A stretch of 64,000 nt of DNA from Gammaproteobacteria bacterium (GCA_963662545.2 CAXXLL010000002.1:416001-480000); one strand, 5' to 3'. Positions 47,042-64,000 are shown, numbered from the stretch's first letter. The notes: generated by a model from the letters alone, not told the origin. Numbers and translations are program-made.

Positions 47042-50000
47042 CTAAAACGTCCGGTATTCCCGCCATGTTATCTCGCCATTGGCGATGCCGCCGAGGGTCG
47101 TGGCATCGGTCGTATCGATGGCACCTGTCGATTTCTGCGTGATGACGGTGACTTTACCAGGAATGTCCTGATCACCGATATGGATACTGGGCGTGGAGGC
47201 GAGACCCGCGCCGAGGTCGACGAAGGGACTCGACTCGCTCACACCCGCGGGGCAACCCGCGCACGGAATTTCTCCGAAGATCGGACTCGGCAGCGCGGTG
47301 CCGGTATTGAAGGCGAGTCCGAGCAGGATACTGGTGCCTTCCGAGGTACAGAGGTCCGTGCTCGGGGTGAACGCGGTGTTGAACAGTACGCCGTCGATCA
47401 GGGTCGAGCGGTTCACGCTGCGCTCCGACGGGTCGGGCGCGTTCGTCGTGTAATGCCGCTGCCAGCCGCCGGCCGTCTCGACCGTTGCCTTGAGGGCGTC
47501 GAAAGTTATAATCACACTGCCGTCACCGTCGAGGTCGACGTCGCCGTTGGTGCGGACTACCGTGTTCGTCGTCACGATCAGGTCGGCGATCGTGGGCGAG
47601 AGGTTCGACGCATTGTCACCGACCGCGGGGTTCTCGTCGATGAATCCGTACAAGGTCTGCTCGGTTATGCTGGTCTTGTCCGCATTCACGTAGAGCCGTC
47701 CGGTGCCCGCCATCACCCAGGTCTGGAATTTCTCATCCACGGTTATTGACGCTTGGGAGATGAAGGGCTTGTTCGCATCCAGCAGCCTTTTGGCGGATCC
47801 CCAGTTGCCGGGATCGGGTTCCTCACCAATGGCTATGCGCCAGATCGAGCCGTCATCCGCGGTGGCGTCGCCGACGGTACCGAAATAAATGGCTTCCGCC
47901 TTCATGTCGACGTCGAAATCGATGACGACGGGATCGCCCACGAAGGTGTTGTTCTCGTTGACTTCTTCATAGCCGGCGCCGGTATTGAACGGCCCCGTCG
48001 TCACGCGCGCGCCATCTATGGTAAGAAGGGAAGCCCGCCCGGATGCCAGGTCAGCCAGATCATAGGCGAACAACCGGGCTTTCTGCGTCGACGTGGCCGT
48101 GCCGAGATCGGTCGGCCCCGATCCGAAGATCAGGTACCACTTATTGGGACTGGAAGTTGTAGTTGCCGGGCCCGGTGGTTCTATCGGGTCGCCAATGATC
48201 GCGATCTGCGGAAAGGAGGTCGTGAAATTGAGCCCATCGGGTGATAGTTCAGCCAGCACGTCGGGCGGACTTTCGGGATCCGTAATGTCGAGTATGACGA
48301 GTGCCGATTTCATCGTCGCGTCCGTACCGCCCATGTTGTCGATATCGAGCGAGATGCTGGTGTTATCCGAACCGCCGCCGAATCGCATGCCCATGACGAG
48401 CACGGTGCCCCAGCCATTGGGGTGGATGGTATCGGGCGCGAAGATCTTCGCATCGAACACGCGCGGCGTATTGTCCATGTAGAAGACGTGTGAGTAGTCC
48501 GGACGGGTCAGCCACTGCAGGTGGGGCAGGAGATTCTTCGGAATATAGGCCCACAGTTCCGCGCCCAGCGGGTGCGGCGTCTGGCTGTTTGGCGACAGCT
48601 CGAACTTCTTCGTAACAGCATTGAAAAAGCCGCCGTTGAACGCGTGGATCATGCCGCCGTTGCTGCCGATATACACGACTTGCCGCCGGTTCTGGTATTT
48701 CGCGCGGAATACGGCGTAACTGGTGTCGAGCGCCAGCAGGTCGAACGCCTCGATAGGCGTCGACACCGGGATCGGCGTCGAGTGGATGATGTCGGCCATG
48801 CGCATCAGTTCGAGATTGCCCGAGGCATGCGCCGCCGTGCCGCCCGCGTTGTTGCCATCGTAGTCCACGATGCGGTTGCGCAGGCCCGTGATGTTTTTGC
48901 CGCGCACCCAGTTGATGATGTTGTCGGCGGTCGCCTGGACGCCCTCGTCCAGCCATCGCCAGCGGTTGTTCGAGCCGAACGCCGAGGTCGTGAAGCTCAC
49001 GATCTCGGCGCCGCCGACATCGACGATATCGTTTAAGTCGTCGTCGACCCAGGTGATGATGTGGCGCCCTTCGTTGGCGCCCGTGCCGACCGCCACGTTG
49101 TAGGAACGCTGGTTCTCGATCGTTCCCTCGTCCAGGTCCGAGAGGCGTTCCCGGGCGTTCCAGATAGTCTGGAGCTCAGTCAGTTCGAGTATCGTAGAGG
49201 TGGCTGTGGCCTCTACGAATTCAAGCGGGTCGCTGGTTGAGAAGCGCCTTATCTTGGAACGCCGGTCGACCTCGTCAAAGAATATCTCGACGACCTTGTC
49301 GACGGTGTAGTCGTCGAGCTGGCCATCCTGGTCGTTGTCCTCGCGAATCAGGCCCTCCGGATCAACCCACAGGGCGTGCAAAGTGCCGATCCACTGCACT
49401 TCGTTCGAGGCGGCCGTGCTGTCCGATTTGAAGGGGTCGTAAAGTGCCTGAAACACGGCGCCGACGCCCTCCTGGTCGTTCGCGACCACGGCCGCGGCGG
49501 TACCGGAGGAGACGCGTTCAATGATGATGTCGAATACCGCGGACAGCGAATCCTCGAGCGCCGCCGGATTGGAGACGAAGAAAAAATTGTCAGGCACGCC
49601 GTCGCCGTCCGGAATACCGTCGGGTATGCCGTCGGGGGGACTATTAACGGTGTTCAGGTCTGGCGTAAACGCGCCGTTCTGGTCGCGGACGTCCCACTCC
49701 TGGCGGAGGTTGGGCGTGCCGTCGTCGTCGGTGTCGTTGAATCCGCCCCATTTGGCGGCGTAGTACAGCGGATTCTCGAGCAGGCCCGCCGCCGGCGTCG
49801 CGCTCACGGTGAAAGTGTGCGAAACGGGCGGGTCACCCACGTTGCAGTTGTTGCAGGCCGGCACGCCCGGAAATACCTCGTCAACGTAGTCGCCGTTCTC
49901 GATGCCGGAATAGGCGTGAAAGCCATCCTCGGTGGTGCCGCTCGTGACGAAACCGAAGAGCTGTTGGTTGACCGTCGATTCCGCAATGACATCGGTGGTG

Positions 50001-52225
50001 ACGGTGATGGTGTTCGCCGCCACGTCGACGATGTAATCCAGCAGGCCCCAGAGATCCTGGTCGTAGTCACCGCCCTGCTCGGAGTCCTTCCAGTTGATGT
50101 AGAACTTGCCGTGGAAAACCCCTGAGCCTACCTGCTCGGTCGGGAACAATACCGTCGGCTGTCCAGCCCCATTGACTTGTGCGGGATTGATCTCGGTGTG
50201 TTTTCGCACGACCTTGAAATCGACCAGCGCGCCGGCGCCTTCCGGTTGCCCTGCTTTGAGCAGGCGGTAACCGGGCAGGATATTGACGGTCGCCGCCGTA
50301 CCGTCCGGCCCGATGGGCGCGACGATCGCCGGCACGTTGGTGGCGAGCGCCACCGCGTAGGTTACGACGTCCTGGACGCCGTCCAGATCCGAACGCATAT
50401 CGTTAGTGCGGGCGTAGTGTGCCATGCCAGCCATGTGAAAAGAGCCCTCCAAGGTTGGCCCCTCGGGGCAAAGCCCGAAACTGTCACCCAGGCTGGTAAT
50501 GGTCTTGGGCGTGCAGACCTCGTCCGTCGCGGCGGCGGTCTTGCCGATAAACCACTTGTTGCCGTGGATGCCCTCACCGACGCCCACCGCGTCGGTCAGG
50601 GCTTTCGGTGTGGCACCGCCAAAGATAGCGCTACTGGTCTCGTTGTTGTCGTAAGAATTGATGCTCGCATTGAAGGCCACGACATTCAGCGAGGCACAAG
50701 CGTTGTCCGCGTCCAGTGGATCGGTCGCCCAGGACACCGAATTCGGCAGGGCCGAGAAGAAACTCGAATCGTTCGCGTTGAAGGCGGGCGTTGGCGCGCG
50801 GCCGCTGCCGACCGAGAAGTAACGCAGCGCCTCGAGGTAGATCTCGGAGATCGGATTACCCCAGGCCTCGCACTTGCCTGCAGTGAGGCCAGCCAGCTGG
50901 AAGCCGCAGTTGTCCTCGCTGTCGTCGCCAAAGTAGGTGCCGCCTTTATTGCCGTTGGCGCCGTAGTCGTAGCCCCAGATCCGCATCGTGTTCAACATGC
51001 CGATGATGTTGCCGGCGGCGGGGGCGGACTTGAAGGTGCCGTCCGTCGTGGTATTGATTTCATCGGTCATTACGCCGACGTTTTTGCGCAGCACACCGCC
51101 TGAGATGTTCTTCTGCCAGCTGCCGGTAATGAGGCCGAAATCGACCAAACCGGTCTCGCCATAGCGCTGTAGCAGCCCGGTCGGCTTAATATTACTGCTC
51201 GGATACTTCTTGCAGTTCTCGAGGTTGTTGCTCGCATCAAAGAAATTGTCGTCGCACACCTCGACGCGCACGATGTGATCCCGGGACCCGTTGGGCGTTT
51301 GGAGTTCGAGTGCCGGGAAAGGGTCGCTGTCGCCGGCGTTAATGCCGGATTGCGCGGATTGATTCTTGTTGATGTCGTCATTGCGGCCTTCGCGGTTGCT
51401 GCCGCTGGTCGGAGCCTCCCAGGTGCACTGCCAGCGCTCATTCGCGCCCCAGAGTTGCCGGTTGGTGCTTACCGCACGCAGCAGTGGTGGGCTGGTCGTC
51501 GTCTGCGAGTTCGTGTTCTCGCCGGAGAACGTGGTATTGCAGATCGTGATGCCTTCGTCGCTGTCGTCGACGCCGTCGTTGTTGCCGCCATTCAGCGTAT
51601 CGGTCTTGACTGAATTAAAGGGAGTGAGCTTGTCCACATCGGCGCCGTTGTAGTACTTCGCGAAGCTATGGGCGTCGGTCGGAAGGTGGGCGCGTTCCAG
51701 CACGGTCAGCGAACTCGTGTCGGTCGAACGCTTACCGCCGAAGAGGATCTTCCGGACGATGTCCATGCGCGACATTGCGGACCAGTTCAGGAAATTGCCG
51801 CTCCACGCGTCCGCGGATCCGCCGCTGCAATAATGCTTGTTAACGGTGCCGTCGGTCGTGGAGACCGGCTCGAAGCGTCCGTTCCCGTCGTCATAGCGGT
51901 AGCACAGCTCCGAATGAAAATAACCGTAGTACGTAAAGGTGTCGTCGTAGGTGGTCTCGATCACTCCGTCCGAATCGACATCCGAATAGTCGTTGTAAGC
52001 CTTGAAGAAGTACTGGTGGTCGCGTGACATCGCGAGCATCACCTGCGGCGTGACGGATTCCACACTCGTCACCGGTCCCGCCGTGTAATCGGCCATCGAA
52101 GCGCCCGAAAGTTGCGCGGCACTGGCATTGAACGAAGTCACGGCAGGAAGAAAGCCGATGCTCAGAACGACGCCGTGCATGAAGTGTTTCGAATAATGGA
52201 TGATGGAATGCATGGGCTTCCTCAT
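47042..52225 (-). CDS. pilY1: Type IV pilus tip adhesin PilY1/PilC (1727 aa)
   Basis: C-terminal PilC propeller (IIHSTP, GMIHAFN, ELWAYIP) and several DxDxDG Ca-binding-like motifs; operon position. Confidence 0.88.
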   Translation of the reverse strand: MRKPMHSIIHYSKHFMHGVVLSIGFLPAVTSFNASAAQLSGASMADYTAGPVTSVESVTPQVMLAMSRDHQYFFKAYNDYSDVDSDGVIETTYDDTFTYYGYFHSELCYRYDDGNGRFEPVSTTDGTVNKHYCSGGSADAWSGNFLNWSAMSRMDIVRKILFGGKRSTDTSSLTVLERAHLPTDAHSFAKYYNGADVDKLTPFNSVKTDTLNGGNNDGVDDSDEGITICNTTFSGENTNSQTTTSPPLLRAVSTNRQLWGANERWQCTWEAPTSGSNREGRNDDINKNQSAQSGINAGDSDPFPALELQTPNGSRDHIVRVEVCDDNFFDASNNLENCKKYPSSNIKPTGLLQRYGETGLVDFGLITGSWQKNISGGVLRKNVGVMTDEINTTTDGTFKSAPAAGNIIGMLNTMRIWGYDYGANGNKGGTYFGDDSEDNCGFQLAGLTAGKCEAWGNPISEIYLEALRYFSVGSGRAPTPAFNANDSSFFSALPNSVSWATDPLDADNACASLNVVAFNASINSYDNNETSSAIFGGATPKALTDAVGVGEGIHGNKWFIGKTAAATDEVCTPKTITSLGDSFGLCPEGPTLEGSFHMAGMAHYARTNDMRSDLDGVQDVVTYAVALATNVPAIVAPIGPDGTAATVNILPGYRLLKAGQPEGAGALVDFKVVRKHTEINPAQVNGAGQPTVLFPTEQVGSGVFHGKFYINWKDSEQGGDYDQDLWGLLDYIVDVAANTITVTTDVIAESTVNQQLFGFVTSGTTEDGFHAYSGIENGDYVDEVFPGVPACNNCNVGDPPVSHTFTVSATPAAGLLENPLYYAAKWGGFNDTDDDGTPNLRQEWDVRDQNGAFTPDLNTVNSPPDGIPDGIPDGDGVPDNFFFVSNPAALEDSLSAVFDIIIERVSSGTAAAVVANDQEGVGAVFQALYDPFKSDSTAASNEVQWIGTLHALWVDPEGLIREDNDQDGQLDDYTVDKVVEIFFDEVDRRSKIRRFSTSDPLEFVEATATSTILELTELQTIWNARERLSDLDEGTIENQRSYNVAVGTGANEGRHIITWVDDDLNDIVDVGGAEIVSFTTSAFGSNNRWRWLDEGVQATADNIINWVRGKNITGLRNRIVDYDGNNAGGTAAHASGNLELMRMADIIHSTPIPVSTPIEAFDLLALDTSYAVFRAKYQNRRQVVYIGSNGGMIHAFNGGFFNAVTKKFELSPNSQTPHPLGAELWAYIPKNLLPHLQWLTRPDYSHVFYMDNTPRVFDAKIFAPDTIHPNGWGTVLVMGMRFGGGSDNTSISLDIDNMGGTDATMKSALVILDITDPESPPDVLAELSPDGLNFTTSFPQIAIIGDPIEPPGPATTTSSPNKWYLIFGSGPTDLGTATSTQKARLFAYDLADLASGRASLLTIDGARVTTGPFNTGAGYEEVNENNTFVGDPVVIDFDVDMKAEAIYFGTVGDATADDGSIWRIAIGEEPDPGNWGSAKRLLDANKPFISQASITVDEKFQTWVMAGTGRLYVNADKTSITEQTLYGFIDENPAVGDNASNLSPTIADLIVTTNTVVRTNGDVDLDGDGSVIITFDALKATVETAGGWQRHYTTNAPDPSERSVNRSTLIDGVLFNTAFTPSTDLCTSEGTSILLGLAFNTGTALPSPIFGEIPCAGCPAGVSESSPFVDLGAGLASTPSIHIGDQDIPGKVTVITQKSTGAIDTTDATTLGGIANGEITWREYRTF

Positions 52226-52254
52226 GGTCTTGTCCTCGTAATTCCGTGGGCGTC

Positions 52255-52899
52255 TCAGTTGCGCACCAGGACGCGGTAATCTGCGCCCGTGACGATCACC
52301 GCGTTACCCGCGGATACGCCGATCGACCTCATGTCGAAAAAAACGTGTGCGCCCGCTCCGGCAGCGCCGACGCCGGGCCCGAGATAACCCGATCCCTGCG
52401 CTGCCCCGGAACCGGGCGAGAGCATGCTGGCCGTGCGTGTTACCCAGACGTCGGAGAACATGTCGGTGTTGTCCGGGGAGTTGTCGCCGTCGGTATCGAG
52501 CTTGAATCGCATGTCTTCCGTGCGCGCATAGGGATCGGAGACGAGATCCGCGAGTACCCCGTTGGTGCCCATGAAGTAATCCGCCGTGGCATTGACGACC
52601 TCGACCTCGGTCGGGATGTCGAAACTCGCCGTCGCCGGCGCGGTGCCCCCAATAGCCGTCGGCCAGCCGCGATAGAACACGTGGTCTTCAAGCGTCGGCC
52701 CGACCGCAGTTCGCGCACCCTCCGAGCTCTGGAACGCGCGCCGCGAAAGCGTCGTATTCGTCGTCATCTTGAGATCGACGGTGGTCGTGCGCGTGGCGAC
52801 GACCGCAATCATAGTCATGACCAGCAACATGATCAGTGCAATGACCAGTGCCATGCCGCGTTCAATGTGGGAGAAATTCGATTGCGAAGTCCGGTTCAT
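52255..52899 (-). CDS. pilX: Type IV minor pilin PilX
   Basis: ERGMALVIALIMLLVMT, lacking Glu5 as is typical of PilX. Confidence 0.85.
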   Translation of the reverse strand: MNRTSQSNFSHIERGMALVIALIMLLVMTMIAVVATRTTTVDLKMTTNTTLSRRAFQSSEGARTAVGPTLEDHVFYRGWPTAIGGTAPATASFDIPTEVEVVNATADYFMGTNGVLADLVSDPYARTEDMRFKLDTDGDNSPDNTDMFSDVWVTRTASMLSPGSGAAQGSGYLGPGVGAAGAGAHVFFDMRSIGVSAGNAVIVTGADYRVLVRN

Positions 52900-52902
52900 G
52901 GT

Positions 52903-53931
52903 TCAGGCCCTCGTGAGGTTTCTTATCTGGACGACAAAATTGAACAGCTTGCGACGGTAGGAACGGTCAGCTGCAACTGGGGTGTAAGGGAACCCGCCGT
53001 ACATATTGAAGGTGCGAGTATCGGTAAAGGTCGCGTCGTATTCCTCGCCCCGGATGACGAGCGATATTTGGACGTTCGTCACCCGGTTCCAATTGCTGTT
53101 GGTGGTGATGGTCGTCGCGTCAAAGTATTGGATCTGAGGCGGATCGACGGATTCGTCCAGAAGGCCGTAAGTGATCTGCATTTGCTCGACGCCCGCGATG
53201 ATGTCTTCCTCGACCAGTTGGGTGCCGCTGAGTACAAGCCGCGTCAGAGTCGGCGTCGTGTCGTCGGCAGCGTCGCAGACGTTGGGCGTGCCGAAATCCT
53301 GGGAGGCGCACTTGCGAATGAAATAGACCGCTGTCTTGAAGCGGTAATTGGTGAATTCTGTGTCGGTTCCGGTGGCCGGATGCACCGGGTAGGGCGTGTC
53401 CGCCTGGATGTCCGCGTCCAGGGCGGCCAGCGCCGTGCCCTGGAAGATGGCGGCCCGGCGCCCGATCGCCGTGCGCAGATAGATGTCGGCCGAGGTGACG
53501 ATGTCTTCCGACCACACGCGCTCCGGTTGCCCATAACGGATGATGAGCATGTCGGTGTTCGGCTGGTAGTCGGAGGCCGGAACGCAACTGAGCGGTGCGG
53601 TCGCCGCGCCCTCGAATCCAATGAATCCGATCGGCGTTAATGCCGGGCTCTCGGCGCAATCGTCGGTAATCGCCACGGTCGTCTCTAAGGAAATGGCGGA
53701 AGCCTCGACGCCACCCCAATGATCGCCCATGCGCAGGTCGTACTGTATCTGGTTGAGGGCATAGCGGGCATTCTCGTTTAGAATGTTAGTGCTCTCCTGC
53801 AGCCGGTAAGCCTGCTTGTTGCTCACGAATATGCTGATGATCCCGGACAGCAGAATCAGTCCGACGGTGATGGAAACCATCAGCTCGATGAGCGTAATAC
53901 CGCGCTGTCGATCGTTGTTTAAAGCTCGCAT
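52903..53931 (-). CDS. pilW: Type IV minor pilin PilW
   Basis: GITLIELMVSI, ENARYAL, GVEQMQITYG. Confidence 0.88.
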   Translation of the reverse strand: MRALNNDRQRGITLIELMVSITVGLILLSGIISIFVSNKQAYRLQESTNILNENARYALNQIQYDLRMGDHWGGVEASAISLETTVAITDDCAESPALTPIGFIGFEGAATAPLSCVPASDYQPNTDMLIIRYGQPERVWSEDIVTSADIYLRTAIGRRAAIFQGTALAALDADIQADTPYPVHPATGTDTEFTNYRFKTAVYFIRKCASQDFGTPNVCDAADDTTPTLTRLVLSGTQLVEEDIIAGVEQMQITYGLLDESVDPPQIQYFDATTITTNSNWNRVTNVQISLVIRGEEYDATFTDTRTFNMYGGFPYTPVAADRSYRRKLFNFVVQIRNLTRA

Positions 53932-53954
53932 AATTATGGTTCTCTAGTTCGCGT

Positions 53955-54521
53955 TTACGGCATTTCGTCCAACGCGGGCAGCACGGTCATGATGAATACC
54001 TGGTTCTGTACGTCCGCACCGCCGGCATCGTCTGCGCGGACGGAACGTTCCTCCCACTGCAGCTTGATCGCGTACACATTACCGTTGTCGTCGCAGGCCC
54101 AGTTCGAGGCGTCGCCGTCGTTGGGAGTCGCGTCGCGGCAGACCACGCCGACGCCCAGGGGCAGCACCCCGGCGTTGGATTGCTGCGGCTGGCCGGTGGT
54201 CGTTTGGTTCCACGTAACGAGGTCGAAGGTTGCGCGGGCTTGCGCATCGCAGACCGTCGTCGAGCAATCGGTTGGAAACGAAGTCGGCATGCTGGTGGTC
54301 ACATTGTAAAAACCGTTGCGCACGCCAAACTCATTCGCCCGCATGAGATCGGCCATCGATTCCGCCTGCATGGTCCCGGCGGAACGCAGTTGCGAGCCGT
54401 GGGTGAACCGCATGCCGGCGATTTGCAGGCCGGCAATGCCGAGCAGGCCGATCGCAAAGATCACGATCGCGATCAGCACTTCGATCAGCGTGAATCCTTG
54501 ATGAAGGCGGGCTACGGACAT
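53955..54521 (-). CDS. pilV: Type IV pilus modification protein PilV
   Basis: GFTLIEVLIAIVIFAIGLLGIAGLQ, MADLMRAN. Confidence 0.9.
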   Translation of the reverse strand: MSVARLHQGFTLIEVLIAIVIFAIGLLGIAGLQIAGMRFTHGSQLRSAGTMQAESMADLMRANEFGVRNGFYNVTTSMPTSFPTDCSTTVCDAQARATFDLVTWNQTTTGQPQQSNAGVLPLGVGVVCRDATPNDGDASNWACDDNGNVYAIKLQWEERSVRADDAGGADVQNQVFIMTVLPALDEMP

Positions 54522-55138
54522 GACAGTGCACTCCCGTTCGGTTGTTTGGCCAGGCTCGCTACGCGTCCGGTGCGGCTGATCGCCAGCGCCTTGGCGTATT
54601 GGGCGCCGCGGAAGTCGCACAGAGTGAAAAAGGTGTTGGCGTTATTGCAGGTTTCGAGCGTCGTGATATCGCCATCCGTATTGCAGCGCAGCGAGCCGTC
54701 GCCCACGTAAGCAAGGAAATCGGGCGCGCCGGCGCCTGGGGTCAGGATATTCGTACCCGGATAGGCCGCCTGGCTGGCGATGATGCAGTCGGTCGTGGCG
54801 GTCACCGCGCAATCGTCCGTACCGGGCGGACCGAGGTCGACGACACTGTTGTTGTTGCGATCAACGAATACCAGCCAGCCCTCATCCCAGGTTGTGCCGC
54901 TGCCGGTAGCTTCGCAGGCCGTGCCATTGGTCGAAACGCAGATGAGCACGCGGTCGTTCCGTTTAATGGCCTCGCTGCGCGCGATCGCCAGCGAGGTAGA
55001 CAGTAGGTTGATCTGACTGGTCAACCTGCTGTTTTGAAGGAATGACTGCATGCCGGGGACGCCAATACCCATGAGCACGCCCAGAACCGCGATCGCGACC
55101 ATCAATTCGATGATGGTGAAGCCGAGTTGTCTGTTCAT
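54512..55138 (-). CDS. fimT: GspH/FimT family pseudopilin
   Basis: GFTIIELMV, ARSEAIKR, WDEGWLVFVD. Confidence 0.85.
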   Translation of the reverse strand: MNRQLGFTIIELMVAIAVLGVLMGIGVPGMQSFLQNSRLTSQINLLSTSLAIARSEAIKRNDRVLICVSTNGTACEATGSGTTWDEGWLVFVDRNNNSVVDLGPPGTDDCAVTATTDCIIASQAAYPGTNILTPGAGAPDFLAYVGDGSLRCNTDGDITTLETCNNANTFFTLCDFRGAQYAKALAISRTGRVASLAKQPNGSALSCP

Positions 55139-55409
55139 GAGCGAAAGTATGGACAGTGCAGCGAGCCGTTGCCCGCCCCGATCGACGAACGGCGCGAATC
55201 TCGCGGCGAATGGTCGCAGCACCCGAAAAAATATGAACGGCGTCACACTCGTCGGTGCGGTTTCGTGGAAACTCTGCGGCGCGGTAGGCTGGCGACCGCG
55301 TTTCCGGCGGCCGCGCGCAGGGTGGACTCTGGGCAAAAAGTCAGAGCGCGAATGCAAATAATTCTCGTTTATTCTAGACAAGGTCTAAGCAACGCGTATA
55401 CTTCGGATC

Positions 55410-55841
55410 ATGGACACACACCGCGCAAAGCACCCCGTGACGCGCGACGTGATCATCGAAGTACTGCACGACCGCGGCATTTCAGCAACACCGCAACGCG
55501 TTGAAATTGCAGCAATTATGCTAGAAGAAAAGCAGCACCTCTCGGCCGACCAGGTCCTCACCCGCCTGGCGGGCGTGGAAGCGGCGGTTTCCAAGGCAAC
55601 CGTCTACAACACCTTGGGACTCTTTGCCGAGCGCGGGCTAGTCCGGGAAGTCGTCGTGGACAGCACGAAGGTGTTCTACGATTCCAATACGACTGAACAC
55701 CATCATTTCTACAACGTGGATGACGGCACGCTGATCGATTTCCCTTCGGACACGATCGTCATCGACCAACTCCCGGCCGCACCGACGGGGACGCAGACGG
55801 AAAGCGTCGACGTCGTCATCCGCGTACGCAAAAAGCCCTGA
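55410..55841 (+). CDS. Fur family transcriptional regulator (Irr/PerR-like)
   Basis: TPQR, HLSAD, SKATVYNTL, HHHF. Confidence 0.88.
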   Translation: MDTHRAKHPVTRDVIIEVLHDRGISATPQRVEIAAIMLEEKQHLSADQVLTRLAGVEAAVSKATVYNTLGLFAERGLVREVVVDSTKVFYDSNTTEHHHFYNVDDGTLIDFPSDTIVIDQLPAAPTGTQTESVDVVIRVRKKP

Positions 55842-55889
55842 GGGGACAACGCGAGATTCTGCAGCGCTTACCCAAGCTAACGAGCGTCT

Positions 55890-56161
55890 GGCCGAGGCAG
55901 GACGGGTTGGGGCATGTCGAAGCCAGAAGCGTAGCGCCAGGGATGGCGAATGGAATCCCATATGAAGCCGGAGTAGCTCAGTTGGGCGAGCCGGAAGAAG
56001 AGGAAGCCATAAAACATGGCTTGCTCCCGGCGAGCGCCCGGCCATGGAAGGACGGGCCGGTGCATGTCGAAGCCGGAAGCGTCGCGCCAGGGATAGCGGG
56101 CAGGCTCCCCTACGAAGCCGGAAGCGTCGCGCCAGGGATGGCGGGCAGGCTCCCCTACGAA
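55890..56161 (+). repeat. Nested direct repeats upstream of the tRNA-Thr fragment
   Basis: CGAAGCC(A/G)GAAGCGT(A/C)GCGCCAGGGAT(G/A)GCG occurs three times; extra 19-nt tRNA 5' copy at 55967-55985. Confidence 0.8.
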
Positions 56162-56201
56162 GCCGGAGTAGCTCAGTTGGTAGAGCAACTGATTCGTAAT
56201 C
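56162..56201 (+). pseudogene. 5' half of tRNA-Thr(CGT), a probable integration (att) scar
   Basis: GCCGGAGTAGCTCAGTTGGTAGAGCAACTGATTCGTAATC, then no T-arm or acceptor 3' strand. Confidence 0.82.
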
Positions 56202-56462
56202 TGGTATTGCGCCGGTTGCCAAGTGCTTGAAATTGCACAAATTCGTGTAAGACGATATTTCTCACGAATCCTCGCGAGAGCCTTTACGACCCCGCGGGTT
56301 GGCGATCGAGATAGCTGGTACAGATTGGGCTCGGTTCTGAGAGATAATTACGCGACGCTGCCAATTCGAAGATAAGCTGGATTTGGCGTTGCATTAGCAA
56401 TATTGCAAATCACGGCTCAAATGCCGTCTTCGAATAAATAAATATAAATAACGAACTGCCCG

Positions 56463-57398
56463 ATGCTCGACCCAGTTGAATTATTTCCGGAGGTCCCGAA
56501 CCTCTACGATTTCCCGAGTGTGCATTCCGATATGTTGCTTGATCGCCGCAGAATTTCGGCGTACCAACAAGCGATTAGCGAAGTCGTACAGCTAGGTGAC
56601 ACCGTCGTTGATCTTGGCGCCGGAACTGGAATCTTGTCATTCCTGTGCATTCAAGCCGGCGCCAAAAAGGTCCATGCTATCGAAAGAGCTTCCATTATCA
56701 ATTCAGCAAAAATAATTGCTTTCGATAACGGGTTTGCGGACCAAATTGTGTTCCATCACGGAGATTCAAGATCAATATCCCTTCCTGAAAAAGTCGATGT
56801 TATTGTCAGCGAGATCATTGGACATGTCGCCTTTGAAGAAGGAATGACCGCGGCGTTACTTGACGCCAGAAACCGCTTTTTGAAAAAAGATGGACAAATT
56901 CTCCCCTCGTTCGTTGATTTGCGCGGGGCATTAGTTAACGAAACACACGTCTACCATAACTACATTAGCAGTTGGGATACTTTCTTTGGATTTGACTTCT
57001 CTGCTCTTCAAGAAATCGCAGCAAAGACCGCTTATGTCACAGAAATATATTCTAAGGACCTTATGTCTGACTCTACGCGTCTCCTGGAGTGGAATTTCAC
57101 CGAACTCAATTTCGAGAGAGATCGCGAAATTGAGTTCGACTTGCCGGTGCTAAGGGATGGTCAGGTAAACGGACTAGCTTTGTGGTTTGAGGCGACATTA
57201 TCACCGTCAGTTTTCTTGTCTTCTTCGCCCTGGAACAAAACACATTGGGGGCAATGTTTTCTCCCCTTTCTAAAACCCATCGAAGTTCGGGCTAGAGAAA
57301 CAATGAAGATGGAGTTGAGAATGGCGATCGAAAGTCCAGTAAGTGGGACGTTCGAAATCTCAGTAGCGCCGCACCGTGAGAACCGTGACTGTGCGTAG
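56463..57398 (+). CDS. Protein arginine N-methyltransferase-like SAM-dependent methyltransferase
   Basis: HSDMLLDRRR..AY, VVDLGAGTGILS, double-E loop VSEIIG...EEGM, GLALWF, THW loop (KTHWGQ). Confidence 0.85.
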   Translation: MLDPVELFPEVPNLYDFPSVHSDMLLDRRRISAYQQAISEVVQLGDTVVDLGAGTGILSFLCIQAGAKKVHAIERASIINSAKIIAFDNGFADQIVFHHGDSRSISLPEKVDVIVSEIIGHVAFEEGMTAALLDARNRFLKKDGQILPSFVDLRGALVNETHVYHNYISSWDTFFGFDFSALQEIAAKTAYVTEIYSKDLMSDSTRLLEWNFTELNFERDREIEFDLPVLRDGQVNGLALWFEATLSPSVFLSSSPWNKTHWGQCFLPFLKPIEVRARETMKMELRMAIESPVSGTFEISVAPHRENRDCA

Positions 57399-60300
57399 AG
57401 AGCGGACATCTAAGACGAATATAGGCAATCAGCTGTCGTCGCGCCGGAAGAGTTTGAATAATAACGATAGAAAAACGGTTGTTCTTTTCGCCGACATAAT
57501 GGGAGCATCTGAAGTATCAAACCACAAAGGAACTAAACAGTATTTCGAGTTCGTTCGGGAATTTCAAATAATCTTTTGCAAAGTTTGTGAAACTCATTTC
57601 GCAAAGTTTCACGAAAAAGAAGAGGATTTTTATCTCTTCGATGCGCGAGGGGACGAGGGAATCCTCATGATTCTCCCTCCGAACGATCTGAAGAATGACA
57701 CATTTGCACGACATGTTGATTTAGCATTGACGATTGCGCTAGCGCTTAAACGCGAATGGCTAGCTTGCGACGAAAATCGCTCACGGGTTAAAAATCAGAA
57801 GTTACTGCCCGTAGACTTGGGTATCGGAATACATGTAGGGCACACATTCATTGAGGAAGATAGAACGTCAAAGCATGCAATCCGAAATCCAAGGGGATTT
57901 AGGCCGGAAGGCTATGCAATAAATCTTGCCAAGCGAGTCGAGGGGTACTCACGAAACGGCAAATTCACCAACATTTTTCTAAGTGAGGCGGCGCATGGTG
58001 CGTGGACCGGCGTTCCGGACGAGCGAATGGTCATATTCGATGAAATGCAGGTGATGGAACCGAAAGGCATTAGTAGGAAAATAGCTGTGTTCGAAGTTAA
58101 ACATCACTTCCTGCCGACCGATTGGGCCGACTACATCGATGTCGCATCAAAACGCGGTCGATCGTTAGTTGATACAAGAAAAATAGATCTTGAATTGCTT
58201 CACTCTGCTCATGCGCTTAACCCGACAAATTTGTGGCTTGCTGAGGAGTACATTCTTCAAAGCGTCGTCGCGAACTATTCTGGGATCAAGATGAAAGATA
58301 GGAATAGGCCAGAGTTCAGAAAGAAAGCTTTCTCCGAAGCTAAGGTAATAGCCGAAAATTTGGCCAACAGTGAACTTCGAGATCCTGGAATATTGCTAAT
58401 TCAGGGCTTCCTCGAAGGTGAGCAATTTGAGTTCGGAAGTGAACGAGAATTTTACGATGAAGCCGCGGCGGATCCCCGCGCAAGGATGGCGGAAGTTCAT
58501 TGGTATAAGGCGTTGTCGTATTCCTATCAAATCTTTTATGAATTAAACCGGTCAATGAAGAAAAGTTGGGACGATCTTGAGAGGAACCAACAAGACTTAA
58601 TCAAGCTGGCTTATAAGGAATTTGAAAAAGCCAAGAACTTTGATACCAACTCTGCGTGGCTGCCTTTTGATCATGTTTGTGAATTGGTTCGATGGGCAAC
58701 TAGTATCGAGGACACTAACGCGGGAATTGATCAGATTGAAATCGCTCATAGCCGATTGTCCGAGGACATAGCTAGTGTGCATCCCTAAACGCGATGCGGT
58801 TGAAATAAAAAGGAAAATTTGTCGCTTAAGGGATCGAAACCTCCGGTAGGTCGTGATCTAATGGAACTTCAAACCTCTGATTTTCCACACAATCATCGAC
58901 ACCACAGGAGGGGGAATGCGTCAGAAACGCACGGCCCAAGCGAGTATATACGAGCTGTTTGCTGACCATGACCTGGGGCGAGAGCTGCAGGGCATGTCCG
59001 AGTGGCTCGATGCTCACCCCAAGGTCCTCACGCCGGTCATGAACGATCTGTGTCGGCGGGGTTTGAAGCCCACCGGTCGACGCGGACTGTCGGCGGAGTC
59101 GGTGCTGCGCTGCGCGGTGCTCAAGCAGCACCGGCAATTGAGTTACGAGGAGCTGGCCTTTCACCTGCAGGACTCGGCGAGCTTTCAGGCCTTCGCCCGG
59201 TTGCCGGGTAATGAACGTCCGAAGAAGTCTGCCTTACAGCGGGTGGTCTCGGCGATCCAGGTATCGACGTGGGAGTCTATTCATCGCGCCCTGCTGGCGA
59301 CGGCGAAAGAGACGCGCATTGAGCCGGCACAGCGTGTACGGATTGATAGCACGGTAACGGACAGTGCCATCCACGCGCCGAGCGACAGTCATCTGCTGTG
59401 GGATGGCGTGCGTGTTGTGGTTCGTCTGCTCGCACAGGCGCGCGAGTTGCCTGGCGCGCCGGAGTTGTGCTTCGTGAACCACACTCGATTGGCGAAGAAG
59501 CGTGCGCGGGCGCTGTGGTATGCGCGTGGTGCGAAGCAACGCCAACGTCTGTATCGCGATTTGATTGGGGCGACGCGTTCAACCTTGGAAGCGGTAGCGA
59601 GGGTACGTGAGCAGCTGCTGAGCCCGGGCGTCACCGGCGTTGAACTGCCGGACTGGCTAGCGCAGGTAGCGCACTACGAAACACTTGTTCTGCAGGTGAT
59701 TTCGCAAACTGAGCGGCGGGTGTTCGGCGGTGAGAAGGTCCCCGCGAGCGAGAAGTGCGTGAGCTTGTTCGAGCCGCATACCGACATCATCATAAAGGGT
59801 GCGCGCGACGTTCAGTACGGACACAAAATCAATCTGGCTTCGGGGCGCAGTGGCCTCATCCTCGACGTGGTCATCGAGCGAGGCAATCCGGTCGATAGTC
59901 AGCGCTTCATGCCGATGCTCGAACGGCATCGAACACACTACGGGACGATGCCACGACAGGTCGCCGCCGATGGCGGCTATGCGAGCCTCGACAATCTCCG
60001 GGCGGCGAAAGCAGAAGGCATCGAAGACGTTGCCTTCCACAAGAAGCGCGGGCTCGCGATCGCCGACATGGTCAAGAGTCAGTGGGTCTATCGACGCTTG
60101 CGCAACTTCCGCGCCGGCATCGAGGCCGGTATCTCCTGCCTGAAGCGTGCATACGGATTGGCACGTTGCACCTGGAAGAGCCTGCCGCACTTCGAAGCCT
60201 ACGTGTGGTCTTCTGTGGTCGCCTACAACCTCAGCCTGCTCGCGCGCTATCAACTCGAATAGCGACGTTCACTCGCACTAACTGACCTCCTCGATATCGT

Positions 60301-60548
60301 CGAACGGGCGACTTTGGGTTGCAGCGCTCTGCGGCCGGCGAACGTACTCACAATTACGCTCGAAGAGCCCTTCGACCCCCACCGAACCGCCGCTACCGCT
60401 CCAACAACCTACTTTCAACACCTCGATTTCTCCGTGCCCATCGAAGAAAATGCCTGTTTATGGACGGACACTAGCTAATGAGATCGAAAACGAGGAGTAC
60501 CTCGAATCTGTGCGGGATCACCCAAAAATTCGCAAGTTGATTACATAG
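57376..60548 (+). pseudogene. Class III adenylate/guanylate cyclase-domain protein with a helical (TPR-like) C-terminus; last ~24 codons cut off by an IS
   Basis: FADIMG, RGDE, GIGIHVG, INLAKR. Removing the IS restores ...SEDIANEIENEEYLESVRDHPKIRKLIT*. Confidence 0.78.
58775..60471 (+). mobile_element. ISNCY/IS5-like element; transposase 58916-60262
   Basis: IRs GTGTGCATCCCTAAAC / GTTTATGGACGGACAC; 6-bp TSD TAGCTA; motifs RIDSTV, SLFEPHTDII, ADGGY, FRAGIEAGIS. Confidence 0.92.
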
Positions 60549-60570
60549 GTGATTACAAAGCCGGCGCATC

Positions 60571-61753
60571 ATGACAATCCGAAACTACGATACCCCTGCA
60601 ATAGTTTACGACGAGAACGTATTGCGGGGAACAGTAAATCGACTACTGCGTGCTAACGTATTGCGTAAATCGACTACTGCGCGGATGCGGATGCAAGTTG
60701 CTGTACTCTCCAAAAGCATGTGCAGTTTCAAGCGTCATGAAAACTCTCGGCGAGATGGTGATCGGCTTTTCATGTAGCTCTTTGAACGAATGCAAGCGGG
60801 CCCGCGCTCATTTGGGGCCAAAAGGTGAAGTGCATCTTGTAACTCCTGCAATCAAAGATCGTGACGTCCGAAAAATAGCAGAAGTTTGTGATTACGTTGT
60901 TTTAAACAGCTTGGCGCAACACGCTAGACTTACCGGAGTTCTATCCCTGTCGTGTCAAGTGGGATTGCGAGTAAATCCGCAACTCTCGTTTGCAAAAGAT
61001 TCGCGTTACGACCCGTGCCGTTCTGATTCTAAATTGGGCGTACCGGTAAATTCGTTGATACAGAATATTGAGGATCATGCGTTCGAGTTAGATGGATTAA
61101 GTGGTATCCACGTTCACAACAATTGTGAAGGGACGGACGCCTGTGATATCGCAGAAACAACACGGAAGTTGATACGCGGTATCCCAGGCATCCTGGAAAA
61201 AATCGCATGGATTAATCTTGGTGGAGGGTATTTTTACGACGAGTTCGAAAATCCCGAATTATTCGTCCAGACGGTCTCAGAATTGAAGGAGAGATTTAGT
61301 CTTGATGTGTATATCGAACCAGGCGCGGCCATCGTCCGTCAGGCAGGATCAATTATTTCCAGTATCGTAGATTTGTTTGAAGGAGAAGATCGGACAATCG
61401 CGGTGCTTGATACCTCGGTGAATCACATGCCGGAAGTCTTAGAGTATCAGTATACGCCCGATGTGGTTGGACATTCGGAAGGCGCACTACACGAATATGT
61501 GTTAGCGGGCTGCACATGCCTCGCTGGAGATCAGTTTGGTATATCGTGCTTTGATGCCCCCCTTTCCTTAGGAAATGAAATCGTTTTCCCAAACGCTGGT
61601 GCATACACGATCTCTAGGGCGAATACATTTAATGGCGTCCCGTTACCAGATGTCTACCTTCGTACTACCGACGGAGAATTGGTAGAAGACAAGGCTGCGA
61701 TCGTGGGGCGTGCTACAGACGACTTCGAGCTATTACCTCATGAAATTGCTTGA
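60571..61753 (+). CDS. nspC: Carboxynorspermidine decarboxylase-like PLP enzyme (frameshift near codon 28)
   Basis: TPAIVYDE, LLYSPK, GLRVNP, YDPC...SKLG, INLGGG, YIEPG, HMPEVLEY, GCTCLAGD. A local duplication at about 60653-60680 shifts the frame. Confidence 0.8.
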
Positions 61754-63083
61754 ATTCAGTTGCCGTGTCCCGGCGGTTCAAGCCCGATCGACTCTAATCG
61801 ATCACTTTCGCGGGGCCGTATCTTTTCATTCCAACGGAATGACCCCAATTCGGTTTGCCGTAACTTCGCTAGACGATGAAGGCTTCGACTGTGAAGTCGC
61901 AGCAGTTGATCAGACGCTTCTTGAAAGTGCATCAGATCAACTTTCGATCTTTTCGTTTCGACAACGGGAGTTTGAGAGCGTAGAGAAATTTAACGCCGTT
62001 ATGGTAGTTCCGACAGGAATCGGAGCGGCATACGGAGGACATGCGGGTGATTCAACTCCAGTGGCTCATGTCTTAGCAAAAAGTTGTGACACATTGATTC
62101 TTCACCCGAATGTGGTCAACGCGTCGGACATTAATGAGGCCCCCGCTAATTCTCTATATATAGAGGGAAGCATACTTTCTCGATTAATGATGGGGACAGT
62201 GGGTTTGAGGCGAGTGCGATCAAACCGAGTGCTGGTCGTGATCGACGGGGACCACGATGAGATGTTTACTAACGCCACTATTAACAGCGTTAACGCAGCG
62301 AGAGCAAGCTACGGGCTGGATTGTGTTGATGTCGTAAAGATGGACCCACCTGTCAAACTCAAGACCTCTAGTGCCAAATCGGGACGAGCAACTGGAACGG
62401 GGAAGAATATTTCTAATCTGATTGAAGAATTAGCTGCGAGAGAGGGAACATACGACGCCGTCGCGATAGCTTCAGTGATAGAAGATGCCGACGGGCAACT
62501 AAATGCATATTTTGAGAGCGACGGAAGTCTAGTTAACCCATGGGGAGGCATCGAGGCGATGCTGACCCACACCATTTCAATTCGATTTAACGTCCCGACC
62601 GCGCATTCACCGATGATGGAATCGAAAGCGGTCGCCGCTCAAGATTTGGGTATTGTCGAGCCGAGGATGGCAGCGGAGGCTGTCTCAATGACGTTTTTGA
62701 ATTGTGTCTTAAAGGGCTTGCACCAAAGCCCCCGAATCGTTCATGGCGCTTTTGATTTCGTAAATCCTGAAATTCTGACCGCATCTGATATCTCGTGTTT
62801 AATTATCCCGGATGGGTGTGTTGGATTACCAACCCTCGCGGCTCTTGAGCAGGGAATAAAAGTAGTTGCGGTCTCTGAAAACGAGAACCTTATGAAGAAC
62901 GATTTAGAACGCCTCCCGTGGAAGCCAGGTCAGTTGATTAAAGTACGTAGCTATTTTGAGGCTGCTGGCGTAATGAACGCTCTTCATATAGGGCTTTCGC
63001 TCGATACACTAAGCCGCCCACTTAAGAGTGTCGGAGTAAGTGCCGCATATTGGGCTTCATCGGTCCGCCGAAAGCCGGCATAG
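61740..63083 (+). CDS. DUF3326-domain protein with an N-terminal extension
   Basis: VPTGIGAAYGGHAGD, LHPNVVNAS, YIEG, PWGGIEAMLTH, PTAHSP, PRMAAE. Confidence 0.8.
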   Translation: MKLLEFSCRVPAVQARSTLIDHFRGAVSFHSNGMTPIRFAVTSLDDEGFDCEVAAVDQTLLESASDQLSIFSFRQREFESVEKFNAVMVVPTGIGAAYGGHAGDSTPVAHVLAKSCDTLILHPNVVNASDINEAPANSLYIEGSILSRLMMGTVGLRRVRSNRVLVVIDGDHDEMFTNATINSVNAARASYGLDCVDVVKMDPPVKLKTSSAKSGRATGTGKNISNLIEELAAREGTYDAVAIASVIEDADGQLNAYFESDGSLVNPWGGIEAMLTHTISIRFNVPTAHSPMMESKAVAAQDLGIVEPRMAAEAVSMTFLNCVLKGLHQSPRIVHGAFDFVNPEILTASDISCLIIPDGCVGLPTLAALEQGIKVVAVSENENLMKNDLERLPWKPGQLIKVRSYFEAAGVMNALHIGLSLDTLSRPLKSVGVSAAYWASSVRRKPA

Positions 63084-63294
63084 AATTCGTTACTGTCGAA
63101 ACCGGTAACGGCCCTCTCAATCTTTCGCGAAATTGCCCCTTTTAGGGAAAGTTCTAATCTGACGTTCCAGTAATCATGCGGCCTGACGAGCCGTGGTACA
63201 TCACGTTCCAATAATCGTTTTCGCGAAAGATAGCTTTCAAAGCGAGTTTCTCGAGATCGGATGCCTCGTCAGGGGCGCCGGTCATGGCGCGAGT

Positions 63295-63426
63295 TCAGGA
63301 ACGCTTGATGATCACGGAGGCGACATTCCCGGCATGCTTCTTCGCCTGCTTGGCTGCCTTCTTTTCTTTCGGTGTCAGTACGGCCGGTTTTTTCGCTTCC
63401 TTGTTGGATCGCTGAGGCTTGGACAT
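63295..63426 (-). CDS. Small lysine-rich protein (43 aa)
   Basis: MSKPQRSNKEAKKPAVLTPKEKKAAKQAKKH...; AGGGA RBS; resembles a common proteobacterial small-protein family. Confidence 0.65.
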   Translation of the reverse strand: MSKPQRSNKEAKKPAVLTPKEKKAAKQAKKHAGNVASVIIKRS

Positions 63427-63757
63427 AGTACGTATTCCCTATCACGTTGAAGGGACGCCCGAGGAGCGGCAGGAGGCGGAGCTAAAGGACATTTGCGCAG
63501 GCGTTTCGCTATGTCCTGCTCTGTAGGATGTTATGACGCGTTTCGACTATAGGCGTGTGGCGGCGCAAAAGCTAATTACTTGCCCGTATCAATCCTTAAG
63601 CTAATGGAAATTCGCGAGGGGGAGACATTGCGAGCTTATTTAAATCCACGACGATGTTTATGTTTGTACTCATTGGGAATGCTGTGACCATGGCCATACT
63701 GGGTAAGGCGCTGTGGCCGGAGGGCGGGAAAGAAGAATAAGAAGCGTCGATCAAGCC

Positions 63758-63820
63758 TGCGTATTCCGGCGAAGCCGATCACTAGTTCCAGCTGAAGCCG
63801 ATCACCTGTACCGGGGAAGC
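63758..63820. mobile_element. Isolated IS21-family-type terminus
   Basis: TGCGTATTCCGGCGAAGCCGATCAC, with GAAGCCGATCAC repeated. Confidence 0.6.
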
Positions 63821-64000
63821 CAGCGGCATCGTGCCGTCGAGTTTTCGTATTCTTCGACAACTAATAGGTCGTATCGAGGACGATGCGAGTGGCGACATCA
63901 AACCGCGTGAGTTCCACGTCGAGATTCCGGCTGCGCGCATCGAAGAGGCGGCGGCAGCGGCGGCCGTACTTAACGATGAGGTCTATTCAAAGTTCCCGTT
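63813..64000 (+). pseudogene. 5'-truncated M20-family metallopeptidase fragment; continues past the window
   Basis: EASGIVPSSFRILRQLIGRIED...FHVEIPAARIEEAAAAAAVLNDEVYSKFP, with no upstream coding part. Confidence 0.65.

Follow-up and report, generated by a model that had tools for sequence, protein, structure and literature searches.

The question raised by positions 56463-63083 of the analysed stretch (64,000 nt from a Gammaproteobacteria bacterium, hereafter the window) is whether the four adjoining genes found there form one system and, if so, what this system might do. All four lie on the plus strand and were assigned from their open reading frames (ORFs) and Pfam matches to a methyltransferase resembling protein arginine methyltransferases (PRMT), a class III cyclase with a TPR domain, an NspC-like decarboxylase and a DUF3326 protein. 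In a reading made from the sequence alone (the sequence-only reading) they had been interpreted as a horizontally moved module that links a cyclic-nucleotide signal to methylation and to amino-acid or polyamine chemistry, either as an anti-phage system or as a small-molecule pathway. The observation itself is confirmed, and the four-gene set is a conserved cassette which recurs in many uncultured bacteria. The earlier interpretation was partly supported: it was right in outline and has to be recast as two units on mobile DNA. The cassette comprises the following features in the window.

56463..57398, plus strand: PRMT-like S-adenosylmethionine (SAM)-dependent methyltransferase, 311 aa, intact (Pfam PRMT_C, 2.1e-18)
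57376..58774, plus strand: 5' part, up to an insertion sequence (IS), of the gene for a protein with a class III cyclase-homology domain (~residues 30-245) and a helical TPR domain (ORF 57376-58788)
58775..60477, no strand assigned: ISNCY-family IS and one copy of its target duplication TAGCTA (6 bp); transposase ORF 58916-60262 on the plus strand; GC content as in the host
60478..60548, plus strand: 3' end of the cyclase gene (final 24 codons and stop), displaced by the IS, with the conserved family C-terminal motif E.YL..V...PRIK.LL
60571..61753, plus strand: NspC-like decarboxylase of fold type III, dependent on pyridoxal phosphate (PLP), broken (Orn_Arg_deC_N 1.7e-12, Orn_DAP_Arg_deC)
61740..63083, plus strand: DUF3326 protein, intact (ORF open from GTG 61710; ATG 61740 agrees with homologue starts)

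Recurrence of the cassette was assessed by scans with a cyclase alignment, which located 12 loci in species genomes and 46 in metagenomes, including duplicate DNA (L003 lies within L035, and L049 within L002). Thirteen of these loci hold a short cyclase of ~350 aa which lacks the TPR domain and the partner genes. Among the remaining 45, at least 900 nt of upstream DNA were available for 35, and a PRMT gene was located directly upstream in 32 of these 35 (exceptions L001, L012 and L051). The PRMT-cyclase loci (n = 35) were followed by at least 600 nt in 23 cases. The downstream gene was SpeD-like in 13 of these 23, NspC-like in seven and of the arginase family in two (L024, L032), and PycTM alone was present in one (L017). 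Where a decarboxylase gene was found (n = 23 loci), DUF3326 came next in 19, and the other four loci stop at a contig edge. The order PRMT, cyclase, decarboxylase, DUF3326 was kept throughout, except in L231, in which a cyclase-like gene precedes PRMT; the same order and orientation, with neighbouring genes overlapping or only a few bases apart, were seen in more than 20 loci of different lineages. The possibility that the four genes never co-occur elsewhere was looked at. They do co-occur in other genomes, and the cassette is therefore real.

Some loci depart from the common composition. In two variant cassettes an arginase-family gene follows PRMT and cyclase and replaces decarboxylase and DUF3326 (L024:1761-2720 and L032:3238-4152); in the latter locus a canonical SpeD is encoded directly upstream of PRMT (L032:438-797). 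In the L120 cassette, which follows the genes for RNase Y and YmdB, the place between PRMT and the SpeD-like gene is taken by a gene for a 577-aa protein (L120:3867-5600, identical to L229:6936-8666). No Pfam family was matched by this protein, and its profile is unlike that of the cyclase (hhalign probability 0.2).

The second half of the cassette also exists on its own. A scan of species genomes with a DUF3326 alignment yielded at least 541 loci, and gene neighbours were read in the best 80. A decarboxylase gene was located directly upstream in 78 of these 80 (54 SpeD-like, 24 NspC-like), the other two loci beginning at a contig end, and a PRMT gene was present in two (L064, L120). In IMG/VR, DUF3326 was found on 71 viral contigs, 51 of which carry a SpeD-like gene upstream; PRMT or cyclase genes were present on none of the 71. 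Searches of GenBank phage records by tblastn with DUF3326 gave no match. The family had been regarded in the sequence-only reading as mainly cyanobacterial and plant-borne, a view that these loci and viral contigs do not sustain. In a FastTree phylogeny of 158 DUF3326 sequences (matches covering fewer than 330 query residues or containing stops, and the own-genome loci L059-L063, were left out) the decarboxylase type switches at least eight times. PRMT-linked sequences fall into three clades, a clustering reached in none of 500 shuffles, and the window groups with L064, L038 and L040 with 98% support. Based on the locus counts, the viral contigs and the tree, decarboxylase-DUF3326 is a unit of its own, very common and variable in its type of decarboxylase, and the PRMT-cyclase pair is a rare add-on depending on that unit. 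The four-gene module proposed earlier therefore stands in so far as it co-occurs elsewhere, but it is not indivisible: it consists of a rare pair placed on a common one. Nor is NspC a fixed member of it, being exchangeable with a SpeD-like pyruvoyl decarboxylase (PF02675).

Judged by its conserved residues, the methyltransferase has the type I PRMT architecture in full. The PRMT_C match, which represents the C-terminal beta-barrel or oligomerisation subdomain, scored 67.2 bits against a cut-off of 27. In an alignment of 24 sequences, the residues D50, G52, G54, T55 and G56, by which SAM-binding motif I (GxGxG) and the acidic post-I residue were judged, were invariant and align to PRMT1. The same holds for S116, E117, G120, H121, F124, E125 and G127 in the segment SE..GH..FEEGM, where E126 is nearly invariant, and for H261 and W262, which follow a nearly invariant T260. 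These two segments align to SEWMGY..YESM and THWKQ of PRMT1 and are taken here to be the motifs named double-E loop and THW loop. Over nearly the full length of the profile, the family matched PRMT1, PRMT3, PRMT8, CARM1 and PRMT6, at 2.5e-50 (PRMT1) to ~1e-45. The two loops singled out in the sequence-only reading were thus recovered both in the alignment and in the PRMT1 profile match. The window protein shares motif I, double-E loop, THW loop and beta-barrel with eukaryote-type type I PRMTs (PRMT1/3/8, CARM1, PRMT6). In contrast to these, its family is bacterial, measures 306-323 aa and has no N-terminal extension, and its gene is translationally coupled to that of the cyclase. Five of six close PRMT relatives in species genomes adjoin a decarboxylase gene, and four of these five also DUF3326; more distant PRMT-like genes were found in Streptomyces without these partners.

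For the cyclase gene, three start codons within the end of the PRMT gene are candidates (GTG 57376, 57385 or 57391). The window protein matched Pfam Guanylate_cyc (PF00211) with an E-value of 0.044 and 13.8 bits and did not reach the gathering score of 21.9, and its homologues (n = 158, ~480 aa) in many cases carry PF00211 and TPR families. The family profile matched Cya2 (6.3e-7) and CyaB (1.3e-6) in the PDB. An AlphaFold2 (AF2) model (pLDDT 87.2, pTM 0.87) was compared with known structures by Foldseek, which returned Cya2 (2w01; E 6.8e-9, TM 0.70), CyaB (3r5g; TM 0.76) and Rv1900c (1ybu; TM 0.81), all with a probability of 1.00. Among 21 sequences, D40, D93 and N183 were invariant and R187 nearly so; D40 and D93 are presumably the metal-binding aspartates, and N183 and R187 the transition-state residues, of class III cyclases. 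At the base-specifying positions an invariant R-G-D-E-G replaces the usual K/E-x-x-G-D, and the residue four positions before D93 is variable. Given the lack of conservation at the positions that usually specify the base, the name used in the sequence-only reading, "atypical class III cyclase", is a fair one, and it agrees with the weak Pfam score, the PDB profile matches and the Foldseek results. PRMT-linked cyclases mostly start with M[PA]RRR, and the basic tail comprises ~30 residues. In the model of the window protein residues 1-26 are disordered and rich in arginine and lysine. Because it is basic and disordered, the N-terminal tail is a candidate substrate of the PRMT-like enzyme.

The short TPR-less relatives of the cyclase (L004-L011, L039 and L041-L047) stem from Syntrophaceae/Smithella metagenome-assembled genomes (MAGs). 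There the gene sits between amtB-glnK and genes for a sigma-54 activator and nifH/nifD-type proteins, and the short form is possibly a nitrogen-status cyclase.

In the window, the cyclase gene is interrupted by an ISNCY-family IS. Its transposase matched NF033593 with 473.8 bits (cut-off 325), and its ends are 22-nt inverted repeats. The 5.58-Mb genome contains 55 matches to the element; 43 are nearly complete and share 98-100% identity. The 6-bp palindrome TAGCTA was present on both sides of all four copies examined. It looks like the target of the IS, recreated by the IS ends themselves. Some copies form head-to-tail arrays in which a single TAGCTA is shared between neighbours (e.g. C2:570377-575501). 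Excision of 58775-60477 (1703 nt) rejoins the cyclase gene in frame to 24 codons ending with the stop at 60546-48, and no other excision length both keeps the reading in frame and retains the spacing of 8 residues seen in the closest homologues. The C-terminal motif in the displaced codons, a consensus from 20 homologues, is conserved in all full-length homologues. The restored C-terminus and the 22-bp gap that follows it, both postulated in the sequence-only reading, are correct, as shown by the homologue C-termini and the TAGCTA flanks of the other IS copies. The alternative of a CTAG duplication with a cyclase ending at the IS was rejected, given that other copies are flanked by TAGCTA and that homologue C-termini match the displaced codons.

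The decarboxylase gene is broken in a different manner. Its main ORF spans 60650-61753, and the true N-terminus, starting at ATG 60571, lies in a different frame. An imperfect tandem duplication of 31 nt (about 60651-60681), marked by a 17-nt exact direct repeat (60634-50 and 60665-81), shifts the frame after approximately codon 27; in an alignment to six homologues the frame switch fell exactly at the duplication, at about this codon. The protein scored 252.1 bits (251.3 in the genome search) with NCBIfam nspC (TIGR01047) against a cut-off of 409 and is not an NspC equivalog. Carboxynorspermidine dehydrogenase (CASDH) was not detected by Pfam in the island, and the genome has no convincing CASDH, its best PF03435 match reaching only 25.6 bits in a 287-aa frame. 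The absence of this partner had been stated in the sequence-only reading. The SpeD-like proteins which take its place beside DUF3326 in other cassettes (L002, L006, L018 and others) form a tight subfamily (mean column identity 66%). Their processing site reads T-S-S where the canonical SpeD of L032 has E-S-H, which we take to be the canonical SpeD self-cleavage motif; processing and substrate may therefore differ from those of S-adenosylmethionine decarboxylase (AdoMetDC). SpeD homologues have reportedly turned into arginine or ornithine decarboxylases on repeated occasions (PMC10407285), and agmatine-derived guanidino-polyamines, among them bis(guanidino)homospermidine, are reported to occur as true pathway intermediates (PMC13625781).

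DUF3326 (PF11805) was matched by the last protein of the cassette at 7.4e-91 with 305.1 bits (gathering score 25), and 14 aligned sequences showed a mean column identity of 59%. Its AF2 model (pLDDT 77.8, pTM 0.82) consists of Rossmann-like domains. Foldseek of the model against the PDB gave no full-length match with TM > 0.3, a search of BFVD nothing at E <= 0.001, and comparison of the family profile with the PDB and of the protein with the ESM Atlas no meaningful or usable match. A wide VIA-align comparison, read for a fold shared with saccharopine reductase or CASDH, gave Z-scores of 9.1 (1e5l), 8.4 (4ina) and 8.4 (5l76), with which glycosyltransferases and lumazine synthase tie at Z 8-9.8, the matches being of a generic Rossmann-like kind. 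Of the two structure predictions suggested in the sequence-only reading, the one for the cyclase gave a cyclase fold and the one for DUF3326 no convincing structural relative. The idea that DUF3326 replaces both SpeE and CASDH, depending on its decarboxylase partner, was rejected, since DUF3326 proteins with either type of partner share 50-60% identity and are interleaved on the tree. DUF3326 had been described as having no assigned function. One experimental link to polyamines exists: according to a preprint (bioRxiv 10.64898/2026.06.12.731819), PavA, with Rieske and NspC-like decarboxylase domains, and PavB, a DUF3326 protein, are both required to form the triamine N-(5-aminopentyl)cadaverine, an intermediate of pavettamine synthesis. 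PavA/PavB is the only studied relative of the decarboxylase-DUF3326 unit in the literature searched.

The four window genes are tightly packed. Between PRMT (stop codon 57396-98) and cyclase the overlap measures 8-23 nt, according to the GTG taken as start; the restored cyclase stop is separated by 22 nt from the ATG of the nspC-like gene (60571); and the latter gene (stop codon 61751-53) shares 14 nt with DUF3326 if this starts at ATG 61740, or 44 nt if it starts at GTG 61710. A scan of the island for promoters and terminators found fewer sites than in shuffled sequences. GC content is 0.44-0.50 across 56500-58999 and 60500-62999 and 0.56-0.63 upstream and within the IS. The low-GC DNA begins at the following feature.

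56162..56217, plus strand: tRNA remnant lacking the T arm but retaining the acceptor, D and anticodon (CGU) arms; marks the left boundary of the AT-richer segment

The remnant scored 26.6 bits with Rfam RF00005 and so fell short of its gathering score (29), and ARAGORN called no tRNA in 50000-64000. The arrangement of four co-oriented, closely spaced genes in AT-richer DNA behind a broken tRNA, as first read from the sequence, agrees with the ORFs, the GC values and the Rfam match lacking the T arm. A 92-nt repeat precedes the remnant in three copies (55881-56167; copy identity 66-79%), and a second partial tRNA 5' fragment lies near 55968-55990, ahead of the remnant. The repeats and tRNA fragments at 55881-56217 resemble traces left by successive integration events at a tRNA-Thr(CGU) site.

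The cyclase was searched for in 41 genomes, namely that of the window, two of the same genus, 22 more of the same family and 16 more of the same class. A strong match to the cyclase family was obtained in one of the 41, the window's own (1.9e-193), and the next best match was 3.7e-9. DUF3326 and the nspC-like gene are single-copy in the window's genome. Because of the low GC content and the strong cyclase match in one of 41 related genomes only, the island looks foreign, consistent with the horizontal transfer proposed in the sequence-only reading. It may extend from the tRNA remnant to a phage-integrase-family gene ~7.7 kb past DUF3326. That gene is on the minus strand (L063:8258-8881, equivalent to G000:C2:486757-487380; 3e-43), and genes for SCO1/SenC, an outer-membrane efflux protein and a PEP-CTERM protein lie between it and DUF3326. 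Past the end of the window GC content is still mixed (0.45-0.59). On the other side, 52903-55841 contains host genes of normal GC content, among them minus-strand type IV pilus minor-pilin genes (PilW, GspH/FimT-like, and a pilin with N-methylation motif) and a plus-strand Fur-family regulator gene (55410-55841). With the IS in the cyclase gene and the frameshift in the decarboxylase gene, two of the four cassette genes are broken. As the IS removes the last 24 codons of the cyclase and the 31-nt insertion shifts the decarboxylase frame, this copy is decaying, and the cassette is very probably non-functional in this genome.

The neighbourhoods of related cassettes were inspected for hints on function. 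Small proteins matching the two-transmembrane (2TM)-effector and PycTM models of PADLOC, as well as Pfam PycTM, are encoded after the cassette in L013 (192 aa, 4e-34) and after the cyclase in L017 (191 aa, 1.2e-30); tblastn searches of the window with these two PycTM proteins gave no match. L013 continues with a gene for an Mrr_cat-NB-ARC-TPR protein and L052 with Vsr and a C5 methylase. A type II restriction-modification pair, a PLD protein and a helicase flank the cassette in L050, and Schlafen-like and PsyrA-like genes flank it in L006. The cassette of L035 is located within a prophage, where it has capsid genes on one side and a serine recombinase gene on the other. In L064 a ligase of the glutathionylspermidine-synthase type (GSP_synth) is encoded directly upstream of the cassette.

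Three kinds of known systems were compared with the cassette. Pycsar consists of a PycC cyclase and a PycTM or PycTIR effector. The cassette resembles it in placing a class III-type cyclase in a small mobile operon, and the relatives L013 and L017 end with a PycTM/2TM-like protein. In contrast to Pycsar, the window has no effector gene, its cyclase matches the PADLOC PycC model at only E 0.009, has a C-terminal TPR domain and is preceded by PRMT, and 20 of the 23 loci with downstream DNA carry amine-synthesis genes at the effector position. The pavABC cluster, confined to Burkholderia sensu lato according to its description (bioRxiv 10.64898/2026.06.12.731819), likewise combines an NspC-like decarboxylase domain with DUF3326, the likeness being drawn from that description. 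In Pfam searches of the four window proteins, however, the decarboxylase was without a Rieske domain and a JmjC protein corresponding to PavC was absent; conversely, pavABC as described includes neither PRMT nor cyclase. Known polyamine routes, i.e. CASDH/CASDC (NspC), SpeD/SpeE, and SpeDA or SpeDC with SpeY/HSS, also cluster an NspC- or SpeD-family decarboxylase with a second, triamine-building enzyme, swap non-homologous decarboxylases between clusters and have ureohydrolase partners (PMC10407285, PMC13625781). Unlike in these routes, as there described, the second enzyme of the cassette is DUF3326 rather than a saccharopine-dehydrogenase-family protein, SpeE, SpeY or HSS. Literature searches on DUF3326, decarboxylase clusters, PRMT with anti-phage cyclases and Pycsar with polyamines returned no description of the set, as the sequence-only reading had anticipated.

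Taken together, the island carries a composite cassette, mobile and built from two units, in a decaying copy. Its anatomy, conservation and modularity, the fold assignments and the decay of this copy are shown by the data above, whereas products of the enzymes, target of the PRMT-like enzyme and a role against viruses are inferred. In one unit, the decarboxylase (NspC-like PLP type or SpeD-like pyruvoyl type) and DUF3326 would form a two-enzyme route to a polyamine-type amine, with DUF3326 catalysing a condensing or reductive step, a role suggested by PavA/PavB. This step may precede the decarboxylase, as with CASDH, or follow it, as with homospermidine synthase. A polyamine-type product is the best inference because of the PavA/PavB link, the neofunctionalisation of SpeD, the guanidino-polyamine intermediates and the ligase in L064. 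The other unit, PRMT and TPR-cyclase, would be a signalling pair. The cyclase, whose catalytic residues are kept, probably makes a cyclic nucleotide once its TPR domain perceives a cue, and the PRMT-like enzyme, with its guanidino-binding pocket apparently intact, might methylate an arginine or a guanidino group. Candidate targets are the disordered, arginine-rich N-terminal tail of the cyclase and a guanidino-polyamine intermediate. The pair would control amine production, or cooperate with it, in phage-host conflict, and in some relatives it may in addition drive a 2TM membrane effector of the type known from Pycsar or from cyclic-oligonucleotide-based anti-phage signalling systems (CBASS).

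This reading, a cyclic-nucleotide signalling pair coupled to polyamine-type amine synthesis and acting in phage-host conflict, is the preferred one, although held with less than even confidence. The conserved order of the set, the 2TM-like proteins of L013 and L017, the restriction-modification and other defence-type neighbours and the prophage location of L035 count in its favour. Several observations speak against it. A recognised effector was present in only two of the 23 PRMT-cyclase loci with downstream DNA. PADLOC, the check suggested in the sequence-only reading, matched no convincing defence model and detected no defence component among the four window proteins; a methyltransferase-domain match to mad2 and the PycC match mentioned above were the only hits. 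Of 68 flanking proteins, 53 had no PADLOC match at 1e-6, and some of the 15 matches concern generic ATPase or methylase domains. Housekeeping neighbours occur as well, i.e. ribosomal L13/S9 (L023), an amino-acid kinase with an aminotransferase (L043), asnA (L020) and an ABC transporter (L014). The cyclase family was not found in IMG/VR, and L120 carries the non-homologous 577-aa protein in the place of the cyclase. Short PRMT-less cyclases have basic N-terminal tails as well, and the cyclase tail as PRMT substrate is therefore a lead only. Finally, the amtB, glnK and nif neighbours of these short cyclases point to nitrogen regulation rather than to defence. A more specific version of the same reading, that of a new anti-phage system, must be called unlikely. 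It would have a PRMT-controlled, TPR-sensing cyclase turn on synthesis of an unusual, possibly guanidino-methylated polyamine as chemical defence or signal, with DUF3326 as a third non-homologous polyamine-forming type used by bacteria and phages.

The main rival to defence, somewhat improbable but to be taken seriously, is a specialised-metabolite pathway without a defence role. Starting from arginine, agmatine or some related amino acid, decarboxylase and DUF3326 would then make a polyamine of the guanidino or alkyl type. The PRMT-like enzyme would act as a small-molecule methyltransferase and N-methylate the guanidino group of this polyamine, and the cyclase would be a regulator or scaffold only. 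The predicted PRMT pocket, with conserved double-E and THW loops, suits a guanidinium ligand, and the partner genes are of arginine or polyamine type (arginase family in L024 and L032, canonical SpeD in L032, GSP_synth ligase in L064). The existence of distant PRMT-like genes in Streptomyces without these partners also fits. To our knowledge, however, PRMT-fold enzymes with a beta-barrel domain are protein methyltransferases. Such a pathway does not account for the strict coupling to a cyclase whose catalytic residues are conserved, and it leaves the 2TM effectors of L013 and L017 and the defence-island and prophage contexts unexplained. The reported change of SpeD homologues into arginine or ornithine decarboxylases (PMC10407285) and the guanidino-polyamine intermediates (PMC13625781) favour it. 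A transferable housekeeping role appears improbable. In that case PRMT-cyclase would be a nitrogen- or polyamine-status sensor which, via a cAMP/cGMP-type signal, tunes an ordinary polyamine operon. The short cyclase relatives between amtB-glnK and nif genes in Syntrophaceae, the occurrence of decarboxylase-DUF3326 in at least 541 species-genome loci, mostly without PRMT, and the cassettes adjoining arginine- or asparagine-metabolism genes are compatible with such homeostatic regulation. Against it, the cassette is patchy and island-borne, with a strong match in one of 41 related genomes, is dispensable here, where two of four genes are broken, and is linked in two loci to 2TM effectors of the abortive-infection type. 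That the two pairs are merely unrelated modules hitch-hiking together on mobile DNA is highly improbable. Decarboxylase-DUF3326 does occur alone in 76 of the best 80 genomic loci, and PRMT-cyclase is accompanied in L017 by PycTM only. Yet such hitch-hiking is at odds with the same order, orientation and tight spacing in more than 20 loci of different lineages, with the three clades of PRMT-linked DUF3326 whose clustering was matched in none of 500 shuffles, and with the five of six close PRMT relatives that adjoin a decarboxylase, four of them also DUF3326.

If the coupling of the two units is real, eukaryote-type arginine methylation, cyclic-nucleotide signalling and polyamine synthesis would be linked for the first time in bacteria, and the PRMT-cyclase pair would represent a rare, genetically tractable bacterial PRMT with a defined partner. 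The decarboxylase-DUF3326 core is common (at least 541 species-genome loci and 71 viral contigs) yet almost unstudied, and assignment of its product would fill a gap in polyamine pathways and explain its carriage by phages. For the genome analysed here, the cassette is a decaying passenger on an island, amid many copies of one IS.

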